Assembly: GCA_963728565.1 (NCBI GenBank)
Contig: CAVSLC010000005.1
Location: forward strand, 256,001 to 320,000
Reading direction: 5' to 3'
DNA from: an uncultured delta proteobacterium
GTDB taxonomy: Bacteria; Desulfobacterota; Binatia; UBA9968
Length of the DNA: 64,000 nt
The notes under the pieces are model-generated. The model ran no database searches, had not been told where the DNA came from, and was given only the letters and a program-made list of their open reading frames with translations. Shown in pieces: positions 2,940 to 47,628 of this stretch. The position numbers and the translations under genes are program-made. Position 1 is the first letter of the stretch, and each line of letters begins with the position of its first letter.

Positions 2940-4091
2940 TTATTTCCCGTCAAAGAAGCGCACGGTGTTATCGCAAAGAATCTTGCGCTTCTGAGACTCT
3001 GAAAGATCTTGCCGTTCAAGAATCTCTTTCATGGCGTCGCCGCGACCTTCGTCGTGCGGAAAATCCGATGAAAACAGAATTTGACCTTCGCCGAGCAGCT
3101 CCATTTCCTGCGTCATCATGGCATCGTCGGCTTCGGCGGCGACGAAGATCCGTCCGGATTTCAAGTAATCATCGACATCGCGCGTCAGCAGTCCCTTGCT
3201 CGATGGCATGCGCCGCTTGTTGAGCACGGCATAATGCTTTAATCGCCCGGCCATATAGAAGATCCATTCGGCGCCGAATTCGAGAAAGCCGACCTTGAGA
3301 TCTGGGTGTCGGTCGAGCATGCCATGGCCGACGACGGCGACGAAGGCGAGATTCGCGGGCAAGGCTTTGCTGATCAGGTTGGAATCTAGGATATTCTCGC
3401 ACAGCTCGGCGAGAGCGGCATAGCTTGAGCCCATGTGCACGCACAGCGGCAAGCCTGAACGCGCAAACTCGTCCCAAATCGACGCGAAGCTGGAATGGCT
3501 CAGCATGCGGTTGCCGACTGTGCCATAGACGATTGCCGCCGCCGCGCCCAGTTCTTGCATCTCTGCGATCGCTTCGCAGGCCTGGCGCGTATCGCGCATT
3601 GGCAGCAGCCCGGCCCACCTGAGTCTTGCGGACTCTGTCCCGCACTGCCGGCCCATGTAGCGGTTGTAAGTGCGATAGAGCGCGGCTTCGTAAGCCGGCT
3701 CGTCGGTGATGTTGGCGTAAAGCGTGCTCGGCATCAAAAATTGCACGTCGATACCCAATTTGTCGAGAATTCCCAGCCGCTCCGTTGGATCGGAGAGATC
3801 GAGGCAGCCGATGGGAATGGCGCCATGAGCTTTGTCGACGTTGGTTCGAGTGCCCAACTCTTCCATGACGATGCCGGGTGTGTTGGCGGCATGCGAACCC
3901 GGGCCGAAAACATGCGGCTCCATTCTGCCTTCGATCAGCCAACCGGTGTTCCAGCGGCCCAAATCTTTATCGTCGATGATCCGCACCGCTCGGGGCCGCC
4001 GCCGGAGGAAATCTTCCGGCAACTCCCGCCACATGGCCGGACTCATGATCGCGTGCGCGTCGGCATCGTAGACTCGAAAACCGTTGATCAT
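2940..4091 (-). CDS. Amidohydrolase-2 family protein (metal-dependent hydrolase/decarboxylase)
   Basis: N-terminal DADAH, PLCVH, LKVGFLEFG and FSSDFPH motifs. Confidence 0.88.
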   Translation of the reverse strand: MINGFRVYDADAHAIMSPAMWRELPEDFLRRRPRAVRIIDDKDLGRWNTGWLIEGRMEPHVFGPGSHAANTPGIVMEELGTRTNVDKAHGAIPIGCLDLSDPTERLGILDKLGIDVQFLMPSTLYANITDEPAYEAALYRTYNRYMGRQCGTESARLRWAGLLPMRDTRQACEAIAEMQELGAAAAIVYGTVGNRMLSHSSFASIWDEFARSGLPLCVHMGSSYAALAELCENILDSNLISKALPANLAFVAVVGHGMLDRHPDLKVGFLEFGAEWIFYMAGRLKHYAVLNKRRMPSSKGLLTRDVDDYLKSGRIFVAAEADDAMMTQEMELLGEGQILFSSDFPHDEGRGDAMKEILERQDLSESQKRKILCDNTVRFFDGK

Positions 4092-15523: not shown

Positions 15524-17866
15524 ATGATGGAAGGATCCGATTCAATGGAAATGATGGGCATCGGCAAATCGGTGCGAAGGCTTGATTACGAAAGCAAGAT
15601 CTCGGGCAGGGCATTGTATCTGGCGGACATGCACATGCCGGGCATGTGCCACGGCAAAATTCTGCGCAGCCCGCTGCCTCACGCCCGGATAAAGAGAATC
15701 GACATTTCCAAGGCACTCAAGGTTACCGGCGTTGTCACGATCATCACCCGCGACGATATTCTTCATGATCAGGGTATTGAGCCTTATTACGGTCCCGTCT
15801 TTAAAGATCAAACCATCCTAGCTGTAGAAAAAGTACGCCATGTCGGCGATCCGGTAGCAGCCGTTGCGGCGGCAAGCATCGATGCCGCGGAAGAGGCGCT
15901 GCGCCTGATTGAAGTCGATTATGAAGAATTGCCGGCGGTGCTCGATGTGCATGAAGCGTTAAGAAGCGGCGCTGTATTAGTGCACGATTCGATCAGACTG
16001 CCGAGTTCCGGTTTCGCCGATCTCGCCGAAATCAAGCCGGTGGAAGGGACTAATATCTGCACCCACTTCAAGCTCAACCGCGGCGAGGTGGAGAAAGGGT
16101 TCGCGGAAGCGGACCGCATTTTCGAAGACACCTTCACCTTACCGGCGACGCAACACTGCTTTTTGGAAACTCACGCATGTATCGCGTCAGCGGAGGCGGG
16201 GCGCATCACGGTCTGGGCGACGACGCAGAATCCATTCGTCGTACGCACTCAGTTGGCCAACATATTTAAAGTTCCGGTGTCAAAAGTGCGGGTGATCGTG
16301 CCGTATCTCGGCGGTGGTTACGGCGGAAAAGTTTATCCCAAAGTCGAGCCGATTACAGTTGCCCTGGCGCAAAAGGCTCGCCGGCCGGTTCGGGTGGTGC
16401 TGTCGCGCGAGGAGGTCTTCTACACGATCACCAAACACGCCGCCGTGATCCGGATGAAAACCGGCGTGAAAAACGACGGCACCCTAATTGCGCGCGAATG
16501 TGAGATCCATCTCGACACCGGCGCCTATGCTGAAATCGGACCACGGGTGGCGAAGAAGTCAGGCTACACAGCGGCCGGCCCATATCGAATTCCCAACCTG
16601 AAGATAGATTCCTATTCCGTATACACCAATAAACCACCGGCGGGCGCTTTCCGTGGTTTCGGTGTTTCTCAATCGGCATGGGCCGTCGAGTCGCAAATGG
16701 ATATCATGGCGGCGGCCCTAAAAATGGACCCCCTCGAGATTCGGCTCAAGAACGGCTATGTCGATGGCGATCGATTCGTGACCGAAGAAACACTGCGAAG
16801 TGTTGGCTTGAAAGATTGCCTCGACGGAGTCGCTAAATCAATTGGCTGGGAAGACAGGCGGCTCGGAAGTTCAAAGGTCCAAAACCTCGATGGAAGCCTG
16901 AAGCGCGGCAAGGGATTGGCCTGCATGATCAAGGCGACGATCACGCCGTCGATATCATGCGCCGCGCTAAAGCTCAACGAAGACAGCAGCCTTTCCATTT
17001 ATTGCGGCACAGTCGAGATGGGCCAGGGTTCCGAGACAGTGCTGGCGCAGATCGCCGGAGAAGAGCTAGGAATTTCGCTGCAACGCATTCAAGTCCTCGG
17101 CGTCGATACCGATGTCGTCCCTTATGATTTGACGACGTCGTCAAGCCGTTCAACCTTTCACATGGGCAAGGCGGTGCAATTCGCGGCGCGGGACATACTG
17201 CGGCAGCTAAAGGAGATCGTCGTTGAAGAGTACGGCGTGCCGGCGGACCAGGTGAGCTTCGGCGATGGAAAGGTGCGCCTACCCGAGGGCTCGCTCGATT
17301 ATGCTGAAATCATGTTTAAGAGATTTGGCATGCAAGGTGGCACCTTGATCGGTGAGGGGGAGTTGAAGACGTCGGTGAAAGACGAATTCGGTGAAAAGAG
17401 CACTTCGGCATTTTGGTTCCTTTCTGCCGGCGCTGCCGAGGTCGAAGTGGACGTGGAGACCGGCAAATTCAAGCTGCTCAAGTACGCCACGGCGGTTGAT
17501 GTCGGTAAAGCGCTCAACCCACTCGGCTGTCGCCAGCAATTGACCGGCGCGGCAATTACCGGGATCGGCCAGGCGGTGTTCGAAGAGATCGCTTATGACA
17601 ATGGCCAGCTGATCAATCCCAATCTTATCGACTATGTCTTACCCTCTCTGGCCGATATGCCCGCTTCGATCGATCCCATCGCGGTTGAGATTCCGGACCG
17701 GAACGGTCCATTCGGCGCTAAAGGCATCGGCGAGAGCGCCTTGATCCCGGTGGCGCCGGCCATCGCTAACGCGATCTTCGATGCGGTCGGCGTGCGCATC
17801 AAGGATTTACCGATCAAAGCCGAAAAAGTTTATCTGGCCTTAGAGGATTTGAAGAACAAAACATAG
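15524..17866 (+). CDS. Xanthine dehydrogenase family molybdopterin-binding subunit (Mo hydroxylase large subunit)
   Basis: LRSPLPHARI, GGGYGGK, GAFRGFG, EMGQG and GAKGIGE motifs. Confidence 0.95.
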   Translation: MMEGSDSMEMMGIGKSVRRLDYESKISGRALYLADMHMPGMCHGKILRSPLPHARIKRIDISKALKVTGVVTIITRDDILHDQGIEPYYGPVFKDQTILAVEKVRHVGDPVAAVAAASIDAAEEALRLIEVDYEELPAVLDVHEALRSGAVLVHDSIRLPSSGFADLAEIKPVEGTNICTHFKLNRGEVEKGFAEADRIFEDTFTLPATQHCFLETHACIASAEAGRITVWATTQNPFVVRTQLANIFKVPVSKVRVIVPYLGGGYGGKVYPKVEPITVALAQKARRPVRVVLSREEVFYTITKHAAVIRMKTGVKNDGTLIARECEIHLDTGAYAEIGPRVAKKSGYTAAGPYRIPNLKIDSYSVYTNKPPAGAFRGFGVSQSAWAVESQMDIMAAALKMDPLEIRLKNGYVDGDRFVTEETLRSVGLKDCLDGVAKSIGWEDRRLGSSKVQNLDGSLKRGKGLACMIKATITPSISCAALKLNEDSSLSIYCGTVEMGQGSETVLAQIAGEELGISLQRIQVLGVDTDVVPYDLTTSSSRSTFHMGKAVQFAARDILRQLKEIVVEEYGVPADQVSFGDGKVRLPEGSLDYAEIMFKRFGMQGGTLIGEGELKTSVKDEFGEKSTSAFWFLSAGAAEVEVDVETGKFKLLKYATAVDVGKALNPLGCRQQLTGAAITGIGQAVFEEIAYDNGQLINPNLIDYVLPSLADMPASIDPIAVEIPDRNGPFGAKGIGESALIPVAPAIANAIFDAVGVRIKDLPIKAEKVYLALEDLKNKT

Positions 17867-43317: not shown

Positions 43318-44157
43318 ATGCCCGGCACTCTGTACATCGTCGCAACGCCGATAGGTAATCTCGAAGACATCACGCTACGGGCAATCCGAATTCTGAAGGG
43401 CGCCGATCTCATTGCCGCCGAAGACACCCGGCACACGCAAACTCTGCTGCGGCACTTCACCATCAACACGCGTTTAACCAGTTATCACGAGCACAATGAA
43501 CGAGCCAAGACGGCCCAATTGGTCGCTCGCCTCGAGCGCGGCGAAAGCATCGCTCTGGTCTCGGACGCCGGCACACCGGCCATCGCCGATCCCGGCTACC
43601 GCTTAGTTGTCGAAGCCACTCGCATGGGCATTCCCGTTGTACCGATTCCGGGTCCGTCGGCATTAGTCGCGGCTCTCAGCGCCAGCGGTCTGCCCACCGA
43701 CGGATTCAATTTCAGGGGATTTCTTCCGGCACGAAAGCGGGAGAGGAGGTCCAAGCTGCAAGAGCTTCGTGTCGACCGCTATAGCCTGGTCGTCTACGAG
43801 ACACCGCACCGACTCAAGGAGTCGCTCGATGACATTCGTGAAATTCTTGGTGACCGCCGAATGGTGCTGGCGCGCGAAGTCACCAAAATTCATGAGGAGT
43901 TCCTCCGCGGCCGCATCAGCGAAGTGATCGGAGAAGTCGGTGGACGCGAGATTCGAGGAGAAGTAACGCTTATTATCGAAGGCTGCTCCGATCTGCATCA
44001 TCCATCCCAAGAGACACTGCGCGAGGAGATTGCGAAACTGCTAGCCGACGGGCTGCGGGTGAAAGAGGTCGCCGAAATGCTCGGGGAGAAATACGGATAT
44101 TCTAAACGCCAGATCTACGGTTTAGCTATGGATCAAGACAAAAATCTCAAGTCTTGA
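43318..44157 (+). CDS. rsmI: 16S rRNA C1402 2'-O-methyltransferase
   Basis: LYIVATPIGNLEDIT, AAEDTR and SDAGTPAIADPG motifs. Confidence 0.96.
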   Translation: MPGTLYIVATPIGNLEDITLRAIRILKGADLIAAEDTRHTQTLLRHFTINTRLTSYHEHNERAKTAQLVARLERGESIALVSDAGTPAIADPGYRLVVEATRMGIPVVPIPGPSALVAALSASGLPTDGFNFRGFLPARKRERRSKLQELRVDRYSLVVYETPHRLKESLDDIREILGDRRMVLAREVTKIHEEFLRGRISEVIGEVGGREIRGEVTLIIEGCSDLHHPSQETLREEIAKLLADGLRVKEVAEMLGEKYGYSKRQIYGLAMDQDKNLKS

Positions 44158-45535
44158 CCCTGTACTCTTCCAATTTTCGATAAAGGGTCGTCCGATCTAC
44201 GCCCAGTATCCGGGCCGCTTCGGCTTTATTCCCATACGTGCTCTCGATGACCCGCAAAATATATTCTCTTTCCAGATCTCTGAGAGTGTACCCGTTTGCC
44301 ACAGCGGCCGCGAGCGGCACAGAACTTCCGTCACTAACCTGCGACTGCAATGGTAAATCTTTCAAGCCGATGCTGGTCTCTTTGCCAAGCAGCACCGCTC
44401 GCTCCATGGTGTGCTCCAACTCCCGCACGTTTCCCGGCCAGCGGTAATTCATCAGCGCAGCCAGCGCCTCCTGATCGATCGAGTCTATTTTTCGGTTCGC
44501 CTGAGGCGCAAATTTGTGCAGGAAGTGCTCCGCGAGAAGCGGAATATCTTCCGACCGCTCGCGTAGCGGCGGCAATTCGATGCGAATAACATTCAGCCGG
44601 TAATAGAGGTCCTGCCGGAACCGGCCTTGTTCGACCAAATGTTCAAGATCGAGGTTACACGCTGAAACAATGCGTGTGTCGACTTTTTCGGACTGATTAG
44701 CTCCCAACGGCCTCACTTCCTTGTCTTCGATGACGCGTAACAGCTTGGCCTGCAGATTGATGGGAATCTCGCTGATTTCATCGAGAAAAAGGATGCCGCC
44801 GCTGGCTTCCTGGAAGAGTCCGCGCCGGTCTTTGCGCGCATCGGTGAAGGTGCCGCGCAGATAGCCAAAGAGCTCGCTCTCAAGCAGGGTCTCCGGGACG
44901 GCAGCGCAGTTGAGCGGTATAAACGGCCCTTGGGCGCGCCAGCTATGATGGTGAATCGCGCGCGCCACCATTTCCTTGCCGGTGCCGCTTTCACCGAGGA
45001 TGAGGACATTGGCGGCAAGCTCGCTGGTTTGCCGGACGATTGAGAAAACTTCCCGCATCTTCTCGCTCTTGCCGATGATGTTCTCAAAACTGTTGCGCTC
45101 CAGTATCTCACTGCGGAGCCGCTGCACTTCTTCACAGAGCCGGCGCTGCTGCAGCCCGCGGCTCACATGTAAAATCATTTCGTCGGTGCGAAACGGTTTA
45201 CTCACATAGTGAAAGGCGCCCGCTTTCATTGCCTCGACTGCGCTTTCAATGCTGCCAAAGGCCGTGATCAAAAGGATTACCGCTTCGGGATCGATCCCTT
45301 TAACCTCTTTAACCAGTTCCGTGCCGCGCATTCGTGGCATCATCAAATCGGTGATCATCAAGTCGCAGCCCTTTGTGCGAAACTTCTCCAGCGCGGATCG
45401 CCCGTCATGCACGGCTTCAACGAAATAGCCTTCTTCGGCCAGCACATCGACGAGCAGCTGGCACATCTGCCGATCATCATCGACAATCAGGATCCGGCCG
45501 CGCGTAGCGGCGGGTAGTTTAGAGTCGGCTGCCAT
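44147..45535 (-). CDS. Sigma54-dependent response regulator (NtrC/AtoC/ZraR family)
   Basis: Receiver domain, GESGTGKE, ESELFGY..GTFTDA (GAFTGA variant), WPGNVRELE, Fis-type HTH. Confidence 0.95.
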   Translation of the reverse strand: MAADSKLPAATRGRILIVDDDRQMCQLLVDVLAEEGYFVEAVHDGRSALEKFRTKGCDLMITDLMMPRMRGTELVKEVKGIDPEAVILLITAFGSIESAVEAMKAGAFHYVSKPFRTDEMILHVSRGLQQRRLCEEVQRLRSEILERNSFENIIGKSEKMREVFSIVRQTSELAANVLILGESGTGKEMVARAIHHHSWRAQGPFIPLNCAAVPETLLESELFGYLRGTFTDARKDRRGLFQEASGGILFLDEISEIPINLQAKLLRVIEDKEVRPLGANQSEKVDTRIVSACNLDLEHLVEQGRFRQDLYYRLNVIRIELPPLRERSEDIPLLAEHFLHKFAPQANRKIDSIDQEALAALMNYRWPGNVRELEHTMERAVLLGKETSIGLKDLPLQSQVSDGSSVPLAAAVANGYTLRDLEREYILRVIESTYGNKAEAARILGVDRTTLYRKLEEYRVKT

Positions 45536-47051
45536 TTTCCAGATTGCCCTGAGCCGGCGCTCCTTTCTGTTGTCGTTGAGGCAGATGGATCAGGAAGCGA
45601 GTATACTTTCCAGGTTCGCTTTCTACGGTAATCTCGCCGCCGTGCTCTTTAATGATGCCGTAGGTTACCGCCAACCCGAGTCCGGCTCCTTCGCCGACAT
45701 CCTTGGTAGTAAAAAAAGGATCGAATACATGATCAATGATTTCGGGCGCGATACCGATCCCGTTATCTTCAAAGACAATTCGAACGCCACCTTGGCCGTC
45801 AATAGAGGGCGCGGATGAGGCGCGAATTTTGATCGCTCCCTCGGGGCCAAGCGCGTGGAGAGAATTGGCGAACAAATTGATGAACACTTGTTGGAGCAGA
45901 TCCGGATCGGCTTGAATGAGCAACGGCTTCGGCGAGACATGGATCTCAACCTTGAGGCTCTTGTCGAATAGTTGGTGTTCCAGAAGATAACGCACATGGT
46001 TGATCAACTCCGATAAGTCGACCGATCGAAACATGGGTTCCCGACGGCGGGAAAACTCCAGTAGTTGGCGTACGATGGCGGTGATGCGATCGCTTTGCGA
46101 GCGGATCACCTCGAGATTACCGCTAAGTTCTTCGCTGCTGCGCGGCCGGCGCAACAGGTATTCAGCTCTGCCTCGAACGATGCTCAATGGAGTGCCGATC
46201 TCATGGGCAAGACCCGCGGCCAAGTGACCTACCGATGCCAAACGTTCAGAGTGGCGCAGATCTCTTTCTAGCTTTAGCTTTTGTTGCTGCTCTTCCAAGA
46301 ATTTGGAATAACTCCGATTGAGTTCTTCCGACATGGTGTTGAACTCTCCAGCCAGCGCGGCAATTTCGTCCCGACCTTTGATCTCGATGCGCTGCCCCCA
46401 ACGGCCGCGGCCGATCTCCCGAACGCGCTGCACCAGCTGATCGATGGGCCGGGTGATATTGCGGCGTACGATGATCAGAATGAGCACAGACAAAAGAATG
46501 ACCAGTGCCGCGCTGGTTCCGATGATTCGCTGACGTCGCGCTTCGATGTTGCTAATCAACTGAGAGCCTTGACGCGCTAAGACAAAGGCGCCGGCAATCC
46601 GGCCATCGCGCGCGCTAAACGGCTCGATACGGTAGTAGACCAAAATGCCACTTTCGCGAACATAACCCTCCACCCCGTTGGGTTCCCCGAGAGCTGGTCG
46701 CGGATCCAGTTCGAGAATGGCAGCAGGGTGCAGTTCGGCAAAATCGTCAGGATACCTAAGCGAGGATGAGACCGCTACGCGCTCGGCATTAGCGTTATAG
46801 ACAATCAGGCCGTGAATATTTCCTCGTGGCCCGACCGTATCGGCGAATTCCTGAGTTGCATTAAGATTGTGACCATCGGCATACAGATCCCGGAGAACAG
46901 CGTGAATGGCTCGGGAGAAACCGCGCATGCCGACCCGCATTTCCCTCATGGCGTTTTCTCGATCCTGCTGAATACTCAGGTAGCCGTGAACAGTCATCGT
47001 CACCAGGATGATGACGACCAATGAGACGATCAATTTTGTTCCAAGTTTCAT
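45519..47051 (-). CDS. Membrane sensor histidine kinase with periplasmic domain and HAMP
   Basis: Two transmembrane helices, HAMP, H-box LAHEIGTPL, N/G boxes, FDPFFTTK. Confidence 0.95.
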   Translation of the reverse strand: MKLGTKLIVSLVVIILVTMTVHGYLSIQQDRENAMREMRVGMRGFSRAIHAVLRDLYADGHNLNATQEFADTVGPRGNIHGLIVYNANAERVAVSSSLRYPDDFAELHPAAILELDPRPALGEPNGVEGYVRESGILVYYRIEPFSARDGRIAGAFVLARQGSQLISNIEARRQRIIGTSAALVILLSVLILIIVRRNITRPIDQLVQRVREIGRGRWGQRIEIKGRDEIAALAGEFNTMSEELNRSYSKFLEEQQQKLKLERDLRHSERLASVGHLAAGLAHEIGTPLSIVRGRAEYLLRRPRSSEELSGNLEVIRSQSDRITAIVRQLLEFSRRREPMFRSVDLSELINHVRYLLEHQLFDKSLKVEIHVSPKPLLIQADPDLLQQVFINLFANSLHALGPEGAIKIRASSAPSIDGQGGVRIVFEDNGIGIAPEIIDHVFDPFFTTKDVGEGAGLGLAVTYGIIKEHGGEITVESEPGKYTRFLIHLPQRQQKGAPAQGNLENGSRL

Positions 47052-47164
47052 GCACGTAGTTTCGCAGTCTCGAAGGAGCAAGGCCTATACCGCGTTCATC
47101 GCTAATCGCAGCAGCGTTAAAATCAAAGTCTCGCCATAATTCGCATAAAAATATCGACGAACTG

Positions 47165-47282
47165 TGTGGCAACTTACGACAGCGTGTGGTTTTTCACAAT
47201 CATTGAAATTTATCTCGTTTATTCAAGCAATTGAGACTATTGCACGGGCGCACAGGCTCTTAGCGCGTTGCATATTACAACG
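47165..47282. promoter_or_regulatory. Candidate upstream activator sites for a sigma54 enhancer-binding protein
   Basis: 17-bp palindromes TGTGG-N7-CGACA (47165-47181) and CGTTG-N7-CAACG (47266-47282), plus TGTG-N6-CACA (47185-47198). Confidence 0.5.
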
Positions 47283-47357
47283 GAAAGAATCGCCGAGCCC
47301 GGCGCAAAGCCACTGAAACATTCGCGTTTATTGCAAAGAACATCAGCCGGGGCCTGC

Positions 47358-47373
47358 GGGCACGTCGCTTGCG
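47358..47373 (+). promoter_or_regulatory. Sigma54 (-24/-12) promoter
   Basis: GGCACGTCGCTTGC fits consensus (T)GGCACG-N4-TTGC with exact GG-N10-GC spacing. Confidence 0.75.
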
Positions 47374-47449
47374 TCTACTCCCGGATACCAATCGGCTATT
47401 CGGGATTGCGCAAACTTTCAGATTCGAAATTTAGAAAGGAGGAGATAAC

Positions 47450-47572
47450 ATGAAAAAATTGCTTTTGGCATTGTTGTTGGGAGTGACCGTCGTGAGTTCG
47501 ATCGTCGATCTCGCCGCGCCCGTGAGCGCCCAAGATGAAGAACCCAAACCCAGGAAGCCCGAAACGGACTAA
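47450..47572 (+). CDS. 40-aa secreted microprotein (signal peptide plus ~13-aa mature peptide)
   Basis: AAAGGAGGAG RBS; MKKLLLALLLGVTVVSSIVDLAAPVSAQDEEPKPRKPETD; own promoter and terminator. Confidence 0.8.
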   Translation: MKKLLLALLLGVTVVSSIVDLAAPVSAQDEEPKPRKPETD

Positions 47573-47596
47573 TCCGTAGAAGTTGATCTCAGCTTG

Positions 47597-47628
47597 CAAC
47601 AAGGGGGCTCTGTGCCCCCTTGTTGTTT
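47597..47628. terminator. Intrinsic terminator between the microprotein gene and convergent acyP
   Basis: 12-bp stem CAACAAGGGGGC-TCTGT-GCCCCCTTGTTG followed by TTT. Confidence 0.75.

Follow-up and report, generated by a model that had tools for sequence, protein, structure and literature searches.

A sigma54-linked gene for a putative exported micropeptide, divergent from an NtrC-type two-component system in a family of uncultured Binatia

Here we describe a very small gene and its control region in a 64,000-nucleotide stretch of DNA (hereafter the window) from an uncultured delta proteobacterium (GTDB lineage Desulfobacterota, Binatia, UBA9968; assembly GCA_963728565.1, contig CAVSLC010000005.1, positions 256,001 to 320,000). 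A 40-codon open reading frame (ORF), which we call the micro-ORF, lies head to head with the genes of a sensor histidine kinase and an NtrC-family response regulator, and is preceded by a sigma54-type promoter and enhancer-like sites. We report that this arrangement is conserved beside orthologous kinases throughout one bacterial family, and tentatively suggest that the micro-ORF encodes an exported peptide acting on the kinase whose gene adjoins it.

Results

The micro-ORF and its transcription unit

The features of the locus are collected in Table 1. An earlier sequence-only reading of the window had described the micro-ORF together with a ribosome-binding site, a -24/-12 site and a 12-bp hairpin, and all four are present where they had been placed. 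The unit is compact, with a perfect 12-bp inverted repeat (47597-47608/47614-47625) that begins 24 nt past the stop codon, as near to it as that reading had claimed. The hairpin sits between the convergent micro-ORF and acylphosphatase genes, and because this acylphosphatase gene is the next one downstream, the micro-ORF unit is taken to be monocistronic. Hairpins 3' of the stop were also recognized in 22/25 orthologous-locus rows (RNAfold, judged by eye), and a perfect stem of at least 8 bp is found there in 16 of 33 orthologous loci. A strong ribosome-binding site of the AAAGGAGGTG type recurs in the orthologous loci at a fixed distance.

Table 1. Positions in the window of the genes and signals of the locus
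Feature	Position	Strand	Remarks
NtrC-family response regulator / sigma54 enhancer-binding protein	44147..45535	-	462 aa
Sensor histidine kinase	45519..47051	-	transmembrane helix TM1, ~150-aa periplasmic domain (predicted PAS/PDC-like), TM2, HAMP, HisKA, HATPase_c
Kinase-facing sigma54-like site	47078-47092	-	CGGTATAGGCCTTGC; GG 39-40 nt before ATG 47051
Distal enhancer-like site	47164-47182	+	GTGTGGCAACTTACGACAG; position weight matrix score 16.2; conserved within the genus, counterpart at about -147 in other genera
Proximal enhancer-like site, palindrome	47265-47283	+	GCGTTGCATATTACAACGG; position weight matrix score 18.8 forward, 16.1 reverse
Sigma54 -24/-12 promoter	47358-47373	+	GGGCACGTCGCTTGCG; GG-N10-GC core GGCACGTCGCTTGC at 47359-47372
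Shine-Dalgarno sequence GGAGG	47437-47441	+	8 nt ahead of the ATG
Micro-ORF	47450-47572	+	40 aa, MKKLLLALLLGVTVVSSIVDLAAPVSAQDEEPKPRKPETD
Signal-peptide part of the microprotein	47450-47530	+	27 aa: MKK, ~20-aa hydrophobic region, PVSA
Predicted mature 13-mer and stop codon	47531-47572	+	QDEEPKPRKPETD
Intrinsic-terminator-like hairpin	47597-47628	+	12-bp stem, 5-nt loop, short T-rich tail

Substitutions between nine pairs of equal-length homologous micro-ORFs fall at codon positions 1, 2 and 3 in the numbers 32, 10 and 92, a protein-coding signature that argues for selection at the protein level, and we regard it as nearly certain that the micro-ORF is a real gene. Its product has no Pfam or NCBIfam match, and in the Protein Atlas the best score was 0.76, under the level taken as a lead. 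Among the Rfam covariance models the best score was 17.3 bits, against gathering scores of 45-123, so that no family came near its threshold.

Parts of the stretch are contained in 20 of the 24 listed public sequencing runs (15 studies, mostly of soil), and RNA-library contigs from relatives 88-95% identical to it span the micro-ORF in four runs of four studies. In runs X18 and X20 the spacer upstream of the promoter (47170-47385) is without cover, although uncovered parts of such contigs carry no evidential weight; the X20 contig starts at 47408, or at about 47397 if 11 loose leading letters are counted. We take this cover as a weak hint of a transcript.

Conservation beside orthologous kinases

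Scanning an alignment of the kinase sensor domain over 185,579 species genomes gave 36 loci, of which 34 had at least 250 nt upstream and 33 had enough sequence for ORF reading. A sigma54-type site precedes a small ORF in all 34, and an exported microprotein ORF follows that site in all 33 readable loci, which belong to Binatia-type metagenome-assembled genomes (MAGs) of one family. The lack of a conserved small ORF or sigma54 motif beside orthologous kinases had been named in advance as the result that would speak against the module, and the opposite was clearly found. The 33 loci divide into 24 that encode a Pro/Glu/Lys-rich peptide (two of them also a lipoprotein) and nine that encode a lipoprotein only. 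An overlapping set of relatives gave the same picture, with the promoter form TGGCA[CT]-N5-[TC]TGC, a strong ribosome-binding site and a 40-49-aa ORF of the same design at 15/15 loci that have upstream DNA; one of these, L029, comes from the unpublished genome G018, and the peptide it encodes exactly matches the one in public record L065. Our tallies of peptide matches, of kinase orthologues and of rpoN in relatives likewise include the unpublished genomes G012 and/or G018.

Full-length kinase orthologues (57-100% identity) occur in 17 of 41 related genomes, our own included, and all belong to one family. Matches to the peptide in tblastn searches adjoin these orthologues, and the credible ones occur only there; weak matches away from kinases (L015-L017 and L019) lack a signal peptide and were set aside as chance. 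Genes beyond the trio of kinase, regulator and microprotein vary from locus to locus, and no partner gene is conserved near the module. At 13 loci of distant sensor homologues in other families of the class there is no sigma54 site on either strand, and we thus regard the module as confined to one family. Across the genomes scanned, the linkage of the microprotein gene to one kinase-regulator pair is tight and exclusive.

The module is also present in records titled Chloroflexota or Syntrophobacter(aceae) (L059, L054, L082 and L086). As these fall among rows labelled Binatia when the kinases are placed in a tree, they are suspected to be mislabelled or mis-binned MAGs.

A control region with sigma54-type sites facing both ways

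Transcription from the -24/-12 site would be expected to start near 47383-47385. The motif had been put forward as a sigma54 promoter, and it is both present and conserved in all 34 loci; taken by itself, however, it is not statistically significant. The window has two copies of GGCAC-N5-TTGC where 0.84 would be expected, and two or more appear in 19 of 100 shuffles; the second copy (16478-16491, forward strand) lies inside a 780-aa ORF (15524-17866) and is taken as a chance match. The site in the window differs at two positions from TGGCAC-N5-TTGCW and was missed in a listing that allowed one mismatch. It is its conservation across orthologous loci, where TGGCA[CT]-N5-[TC]TGC is the promoter form, that lifts it above chance.

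The palindromes noticed upstream hold up as conserved enhancer-like sites, or upstream activating sequences (UAS), at the two places given in Table 1. Their consensus is yGTnG-N3-TTT-rCAACr (TGTTG-N7-CAACA; TGTnG-N7-CAACA), mostly in two copies about 69 and 147 nt before the promoter GG; in the window the proximal copy lies 75 nt upstream of the GG, and a weaker repeat, TGTGG-N7-CAATC, directly follows the distal one. The half-site TYRCAACR is found at -40 to -200 in 32/35 loci (41 sites), while 200 shuffles gave a mean of 0.68 loci and a maximum of three.

In a position weight matrix scan of the whole assembly, paired UAS stand next to a sigma54 site only at the module locus. Of the eight best single UAS-like matches elsewhere in the genome, six are enclosed by long ORFs and the other two are at the edges of ORFs. 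No convincing sigma54 site follows any of the eight; one loose GG-N10-GC match was seen, at C20. A composite pattern (half-site, 55-85 nt, GGCAY-N5-TTGC) scanned over five genomes gave six matches, four at the module locus and two elsewhere, while a backwards control gave two. Its matches are at the module locus only in G015 (100% complete) and G257 (98% complete), and in G014 it has no match even at that genome's own module locus. The combination of enhancer and promoter is essentially unique to the module locus in each genome searched, and we consider it very probable that the sigma54 promoter is controlled by the neighbouring regulator.

The other composite match in the window's own assembly (G000:C23:64719-64811, forward strand) lies upstream of a 146-aa ORF (MRSVIVPLDGSDVAETILSP...) that we take, from our own reading of it, to resemble a universal stress protein; the backwards control gives one match in this assembly, and the site could be a second target or chance.

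A second sigma54-like site, of the form CGGTAT-N5-TTGCT, faces the kinase gene and is a candidate autoregulatory promoter. Across the loci it lies 30-42 nt before the kinase start; a regular expression found it in 15 of 33 loci, inspection by eye added GGA-N9-TTGCT variants at six others, and it is present in L094. It was not found in the lipoprotein-only loci among the 33 scanned. The kinase probably starts at the conserved ATG 47051 (MKLGTKL...) rather than at the TTG 47081 chosen by the ORF finder. The TTG falls within the kinase-facing site; with the ATG as start, the leader would be only about 15 nt long and would lack an obvious Shine-Dalgarno sequence. The picture is of a bidirectional, seemingly autoregulated sigma54 control region resembling that of zraP/zraSR, and the likeness proposed in the sequence-only reading extends further than it had said, since the window and many other loci also have the kinase-facing site.

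The assembly of the window is rich in sigma54-type sites, with 93 xGGCAy-N5-TTGC sites that have a Shine-Dalgarno sequence and an ORF of at least 20 aa within 150 nt, 32 of them with ORFs of at most 80 aa. Among them are several small ORFs for membrane or exported products and, on contig C18, two Flp-pilin-like genes that have a GAFTGA-type motif at a distance of about 1.1-1.2 kb. A 33-aa ORF with a sigma54 site ahead of it on contig C22 (L110, G000:C22:45500-53000, about 3690-3800, reverse strand) was rejected as a further microprotein gene, being in reality the signal peptide of an SLT+LysM lytic transglycosylase, whose 391-aa ORF follows in a different frame. The two meet at a 12-nt direct repeat, AATCCGTTCCCA, and a frameshift or an assembly error separates signal peptide and enzyme.

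The Pro-rich peptide family

The Pro-rich products of the 24 loci share one design, in which MKK is followed by a hydrophobic stretch of about 20 residues, (S/V/G)-x-A, and then Q/D-E-E-P-x-P-x-P-K-P-E-K-P-D/G-S-E. A profile of these peptides retrieved 280 clusters from a collection of 5.8 billion proteins, all annotated "hypothetical" and none with a Pfam domain; 15 longer matches that might have been fusions proved to be start calls extended upstream. The residue statistics that follow cover 132 of 135 retrieved homologues. Position -3 is S in 129 (V in the window) and -1 is A by construction, while +1 is Q in 111, D in 19 and E in two. Tails are 13-27 aa long (median 15), composed of 33% P, 25% E and 12% K, with a net charge of -5 to -2 and E or D as the C-terminal residue in 102.

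The n-h-c layout and the small -3/-1 pair (P-V-S-A|Q in the window) are those of a Sec/signal peptidase I precursor, and we think it probable that the precursor is exported and cleaved, presumably after A27. The leader is Sec-type and no double-glycine leader is present in the micro-ORF product, which also has no Pfam match to a PepSY domain. Pyroglutamylation of the mature N-terminus, raised as a possibility in the sequence-only reading, cannot be universal, since D or E takes the place of Q at +1 in 21/132. A glutaminyl cyclase of family PF05096 was not found in the assembly, which is 80.55% complete.

Identity ranges from 0.64 to 0.88 for the tail, 0.48 to 0.87 for the signal peptide and 0.47 to 0.88 for the kinase sensor, low complexity inflating the value for the tail. 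By these comparisons the tail is under constraint and more conserved than the signal peptide and the kinase periplasmic domain.

A lipoprotein microprotein in sister loci

At nine loci the Pro-rich peptide is replaced by a lipoprotein precursor of about 39-46 aa (...LLALAGC|PEVAQQGGGSSS...), with a lipobox L-(A/T/G)-G-C in 9/9 aligned sequences. This family comprises 91 database clusters, all "hypothetical". Two loci carry Pro-rich and lipoprotein genes in tandem behind a single promoter, and in L082 and L037 (two rows of one genome, G023) a decayed lipoprotein frame stands ahead of the Pro-rich gene. A further kinase orthologue, L094, is accompanied by a different 54-aa lipoprotein with the lipobox LSAC. 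In all, lipoprotein-type loci were noted at L055, L067, L070, L072, L074, L076, L078-L081, L083 and L094, with precursors of 39-54 aa and Gly/Ser/Gln-rich tails. Homology between the two kinds of microprotein was considered and rejected, hhalign giving a probability of 18% over the signal-peptide region only, and we treat them as unrelated.

In a kinase tree (a quick tree with a midpoint root), one locus with both genes falls in each of the two main groups, the lipoprotein-only L055 is nested among Pro-rich loci, and the Pro-rich L082 lies among lipoprotein loci. This distribution suggests repeated loss from a two-gene state.

The kinase, the regulator and the neighbouring genes

HAMP, HisKA and HATPase_c domains were recognized by Pfam in the kinase, while its periplasmic part of about 150 aa has no Pfam match and a search of the PDB by sequence with the sensor profile gave none either. 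In an AlphaFold2 model of kinase residues 1-215 (15-row alignment, pLDDT, the model's own confidence score, 85.3), TM1 is prolonged by a long helix, after which come an alpha/beta domain of five strands and TM2. Foldseek placed the WalK extracellular domain first (E 1e-7 and 2e-4), followed by PAS, Cache and CitA sensors, and a PAS/PDC-like fold is accordingly predicted for the sensor. The sensor family comprises 235 representative clusters at E<=1e-3 and 11 at E<=1e-30.

The regulator shows Response_reg (4.9e-29), Sigma54_activat (7.8e-69), AAA_lid_14 and HTH_8 (4.4e-15) domains in Pfam, and the start of its gene overlaps the kinase stop by 17 nt. Among NCBIfam models the kinase core is nearest AtoS/ZraS and the regulator nearest AtoC/NtrC/ZraR, all far under the equivalog cut-offs; with the ZraS model the kinase core alone is matched, at 202.6 bits (cut-off 479), and with the ZraR model the regulator reaches 397.3 bits (cut-off 760). 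The neighbours of the module in the window are rsmI, the acylphosphatase gene, a gene for an RRM protein and the gene for LigA.

Discussion

We propose that the micro-ORF is the gene for an exported micropeptide, the dedicated target of the adjoining two-component system, and that this peptide would most likely act on the system's own kinase; to this reading we give a probability of about 0.4. The periplasmic PAS/PDC-like sensor kinase would phosphorylate the NtrC-type regulator, which may then bind the two conserved UAS (TGTnG-N7-CAACA) within the 400-nt divergent region and activate the sigma54 promoter of the 40-codon gene and, in many lineages including that of the window, the second sigma54-like promoter of its own kinase-regulator operon. 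Sec would export the precursor, and cleavage behind the A of (S/V)-x-A would leave an acidic periplasmic peptide of 13-27 residues with Pro at every second residue, which should be extended and protease-resistant. This peptide would be the circuit's periplasmic output, and most likely an accessory or feedback element at the sensor of its own kinase, like ZraP, CpxP, MgrB and DbfQ. Feedback on the kinase is ranked first because of the ZraP/ZraSR layout and the precedents of MgrB and DbfQ.

Several observations weigh against this proposal. Nine loci with only the unrelated lipoprotein still keep an orthologous sensor, and such a swap argues against a strict fit of ligand and pocket; the scattered lipoprotein-only and two-gene states are easier to reconcile with a generic exported tail, small and disordered, than with a specific ligand. 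The net charge of the sensor ranges from -4 to +3 with no pattern, and the idea that acidic tail and sensor are complementary in charge was dropped on that account. A system whose only output was its own modulator would have no physiological output, so that the peptide would have a further role or other targets have been missed. On the side of transcription, the L1 loop of the regulator (nt 44837-44854, reverse strand, residues 228-233) reads GTFTDA, not GAFTGA; among the 30 orthologous loci in which the loop was found (36 scanned), 27 have GAFTDA and three GTFTDA, while other loops of enhancer-binding-protein type in the genome are GAFTGA (12) and GAYTGA (one). The F and T of the loop are kept; the G-to-D exchange is specific to this clade and affects a motif that is normally invariant, though the targets keep good sigma54 sites. 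The rpoN gene (PF04552) was not found in our 80.55%-complete assembly, and is present in 24/24 relatives searched, 7/7 of them within the genus. The matrix used in the genome scan was built from the same loci and is thus partly circular, and the scanned assembly is the incomplete one. Finally, runs X16 and X17 also cover the spacer upstream of the promoter, so that carry-over of DNA into the RNA libraries is possible.

The reading ranked second, after feedback on the kinase, is that the peptide, or the lipoprotein of the sister lineages, is the physiological output and acts on some other component or property of the envelope, with no contact to a kinase that senses an unrelated stimulus. The fact that the Pro-rich peptide and the unrelated lipoprotein interchange or co-occur under the same promoter suggests that what counts is a generic small tail, disordered and hydrophilic, in the periplasm; the regulator has no other recognisable target and must have some output, and sigma54 promoters in this genome precede many genes for envelope or exported proteins, in keeping with the published view that sigma54 controls the exterior of the cell (PMC3162934). 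We nevertheless think an envelope role of this kind somewhat less likely than feedback: it is hard to name one for 13-27 residues without Cys, His or aromatics, no conserved partner gene lies nearby, and strict coupling to one kinase amid otherwise variable neighbours is equally expected of an accessory factor. It is very improbable that the RNA is the product, as a sigma54-dependent small RNA like GlmY or Qrr in which the ORF is incidental or secondary. A short monocistronic unit (about 240 nt), bounded by a sigma54 promoter and a strong terminator and adjoining the genes of an NtrC-type system, would suit such an RNA, and glmY adjoins glrK/glrR as Qrr adjoins luxO, but the third-position excess (32/10/92) shows conservation at the protein level across genera whose DNA has diverged, the strong ribosome-binding site is kept at its fixed distance, and no Rfam family approached its threshold. 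The layout itself is a known one, the small RNA glmY being tabulated as a GlrR-dependent sigma54 target (PMC4987338).

Two further explanations keep the kinase as the partner. In one, the Sec-exported linear peptide is an autoinducing ligand in a diderm, its acidic C-terminal residue entering the kinase PDC pocket as a tethered dicarboxylate while the regulator drives both genes through the twin sigma54 promoters; X-Pro spacing would shield the tail from peptidases, the tiny lipoprotein would serve as a form of the cue tethered to the membrane, and the whole would amount to a Com/Agr-like loop built from Sec, a PDC sensor and sigma54. We judge this improbable and, in the form in which the mature peptide is a diffusible cue for the PDC domain with positive feedback on peptide and receptor, quite improbable. 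A precursor of 40-55 aa yielding a product of 13-27 aa, encoded beside a kinase and a regulator, is what one would look for, as are sigma54-type sites that share UAS and precede not only the peptide gene but in many loci also the kinase operon; conservation of the tail, which ends in an acidic residue in 102/132 homologues, and a regular Pro spacing that should resist peptidases can be added. Against a diffusible cue stand the want of an exporter or processing gene in the neighbourhood and of an evident route across the outer membrane for a charged peptide of about 1.5-3 kDa; no regulon beyond the module was found, the lipoprotein variant cannot diffuse, and the tail is the most conserved part, with no pherotype-like diversification. 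The other explanation makes the hydrophobic segment the active part, either as an uncleaved signal-anchor in the inner membrane that contacts the kinase transmembrane helices (MgrB-like or PilA-PilS-like) or as a released signal peptide that is itself the modulator. This segment is two thirds of the product, its h-region of about 20 residues is long for Sec and holds conserved polar residues (N/T15, S18-S19 and D/N22), it is conserved as much as the sensor domain, and an N-terminus of that kind is the only thing common to both microprotein types; the best structural match of the sensor, moreover, is to WalK in an entry whose title describes an integrative model of this protein together with YycH, and WalK is controlled via membrane-embedded partners. 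With a conserved canonical -3/-1 pair (S/V, A) and a helix breaker at -5/-6, conservation below that of the tail, and a lipobox in 9/9 lipoprotein variants whose signal peptide would be removed, we hold this explanation to be decidedly improbable.

The logic of such a circuit is already known; what would be new is an acidic, Pro-rich, Sec-exported peptide of 13-27 residues, or a lipopeptide of about 20 residues, as the sole apparent target of an autoregulated sigma54 system. No description of the module was found in the literature searched, which covers only a minority of subscription journals. To our knowledge, almost all small proteins known to tune kinases come from cultured Proteobacteria; the examples discussed here (MgrB, ZraP, CpxP, DbfQ) extend from MgrB, a membrane protein of 47 aa, to folded proteins of the periplasm. 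In the present case the two-component system kept by a whole family of uncultured soil bacteria has such a peptide or lipopeptide as its sole recognisable target. Action on the kinase would make the peptide the smallest known periplasmic accessory and a rare instance of sensing through peptides among diderms; without such action, it would be an envelope micropeptide under sigma54 control. In either case two unannotated microprotein families, of 280 and 91 database clusters, are added, and neither of them has a Pfam or NCBIfam model. The module, with two UAS and two sigma54 promoters, is compact enough to be rebuilt in E. coli, and it offers a natural GAFTDA variant of the sigma54-contact loop for testing.

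Comparison with known systems

ZraP is a folded, zinc-binding chaperone of about 140 aa, whereas the Binatia product is a low-complexity peptide of 13-27 aa that has no Pfam match and does not belong to the ZraP/CpxP family. The arrangement is nonetheless that of zraP-zraSR, the Zn/envelope-stress system of E. coli and Salmonella, where an NtrC-type pair is divergent from the gene of a Sec-exported periplasmic product and sigma54 sites point both ways. Those divergent sigma54 promoters are under the control of the system's own regulator, and ZraP is cited as a repressor of ZraSR (PMC4987338). The Binatia kinase and regulator differ also in not being ZraS/ZraR equivalogs.

MgrB is retained in the membrane and its promoter is not known to be sigma54-dependent, while the Binatia peptide is predicted to be cleaved and has no sequence similarity to MgrB (no Pfam match). 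The likeness is that of a tiny product within the regulon of the system, the MgrB product of about 47 aa belonging to the PhoQ/PhoP regulon and feeding back on the kinase (PMC8404706). DbfQ, a small Sec-exported periplasmic protein encoded beside DbfS/DbfR, binds the DbfS sensor in an autoregulated system for which divergent arrangements exist (PMC12714742). It has 135 aa and a PepSY domain, whereas the Binatia products are domain-less and, after cleavage, about ten times shorter.

QseG is a full-size lipoprotein encoded inside its operon. With QseG-QseE/QseF and glmY the module shares a system that drives a short monocistronic sigma54 unit, glmY being a non-coding RNA whereas the Binatia unit is protein-coding. 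QseE/QseF (GlrK/GlrR) is a sigma54-dependent NtrC-type system whose kinase is controlled periplasmically by the lipoprotein QseG (PMC6075780).

The Binatia module resembles ComC-ComDE and Agr of monoderms in the sizes of precursor and mature peptide, in gene order and in apparent positive autoregulation. In those systems a precursor of about 40 aa with a mature peptide of about 15 aa is encoded next to a kinase and a regulator, and has a double-glycine leader and an ABC (ATP-binding cassette) exporter or is processed by AgrB; the Binatia module differs in its Sec-type signal, the lack of an exporter gene nearby, its diderm host and its sigma54 control. The response regulator AlgB, which induces DimA in Pseudomonas aeruginosa, is an NtrC-family protein. 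DimA is a periplasmic microprotein with a Sec signal that exerts positive feedback on its pathway, and the paper describing it has no occurrence of sigma54 or RpoN (PMC12780092). It is 92 aa long and acts through a C-terminal WTF motif on the protease AlgW rather than on a kinase (PMC12780092), whereas the Binatia tails mostly end in acidic residues (102/132).

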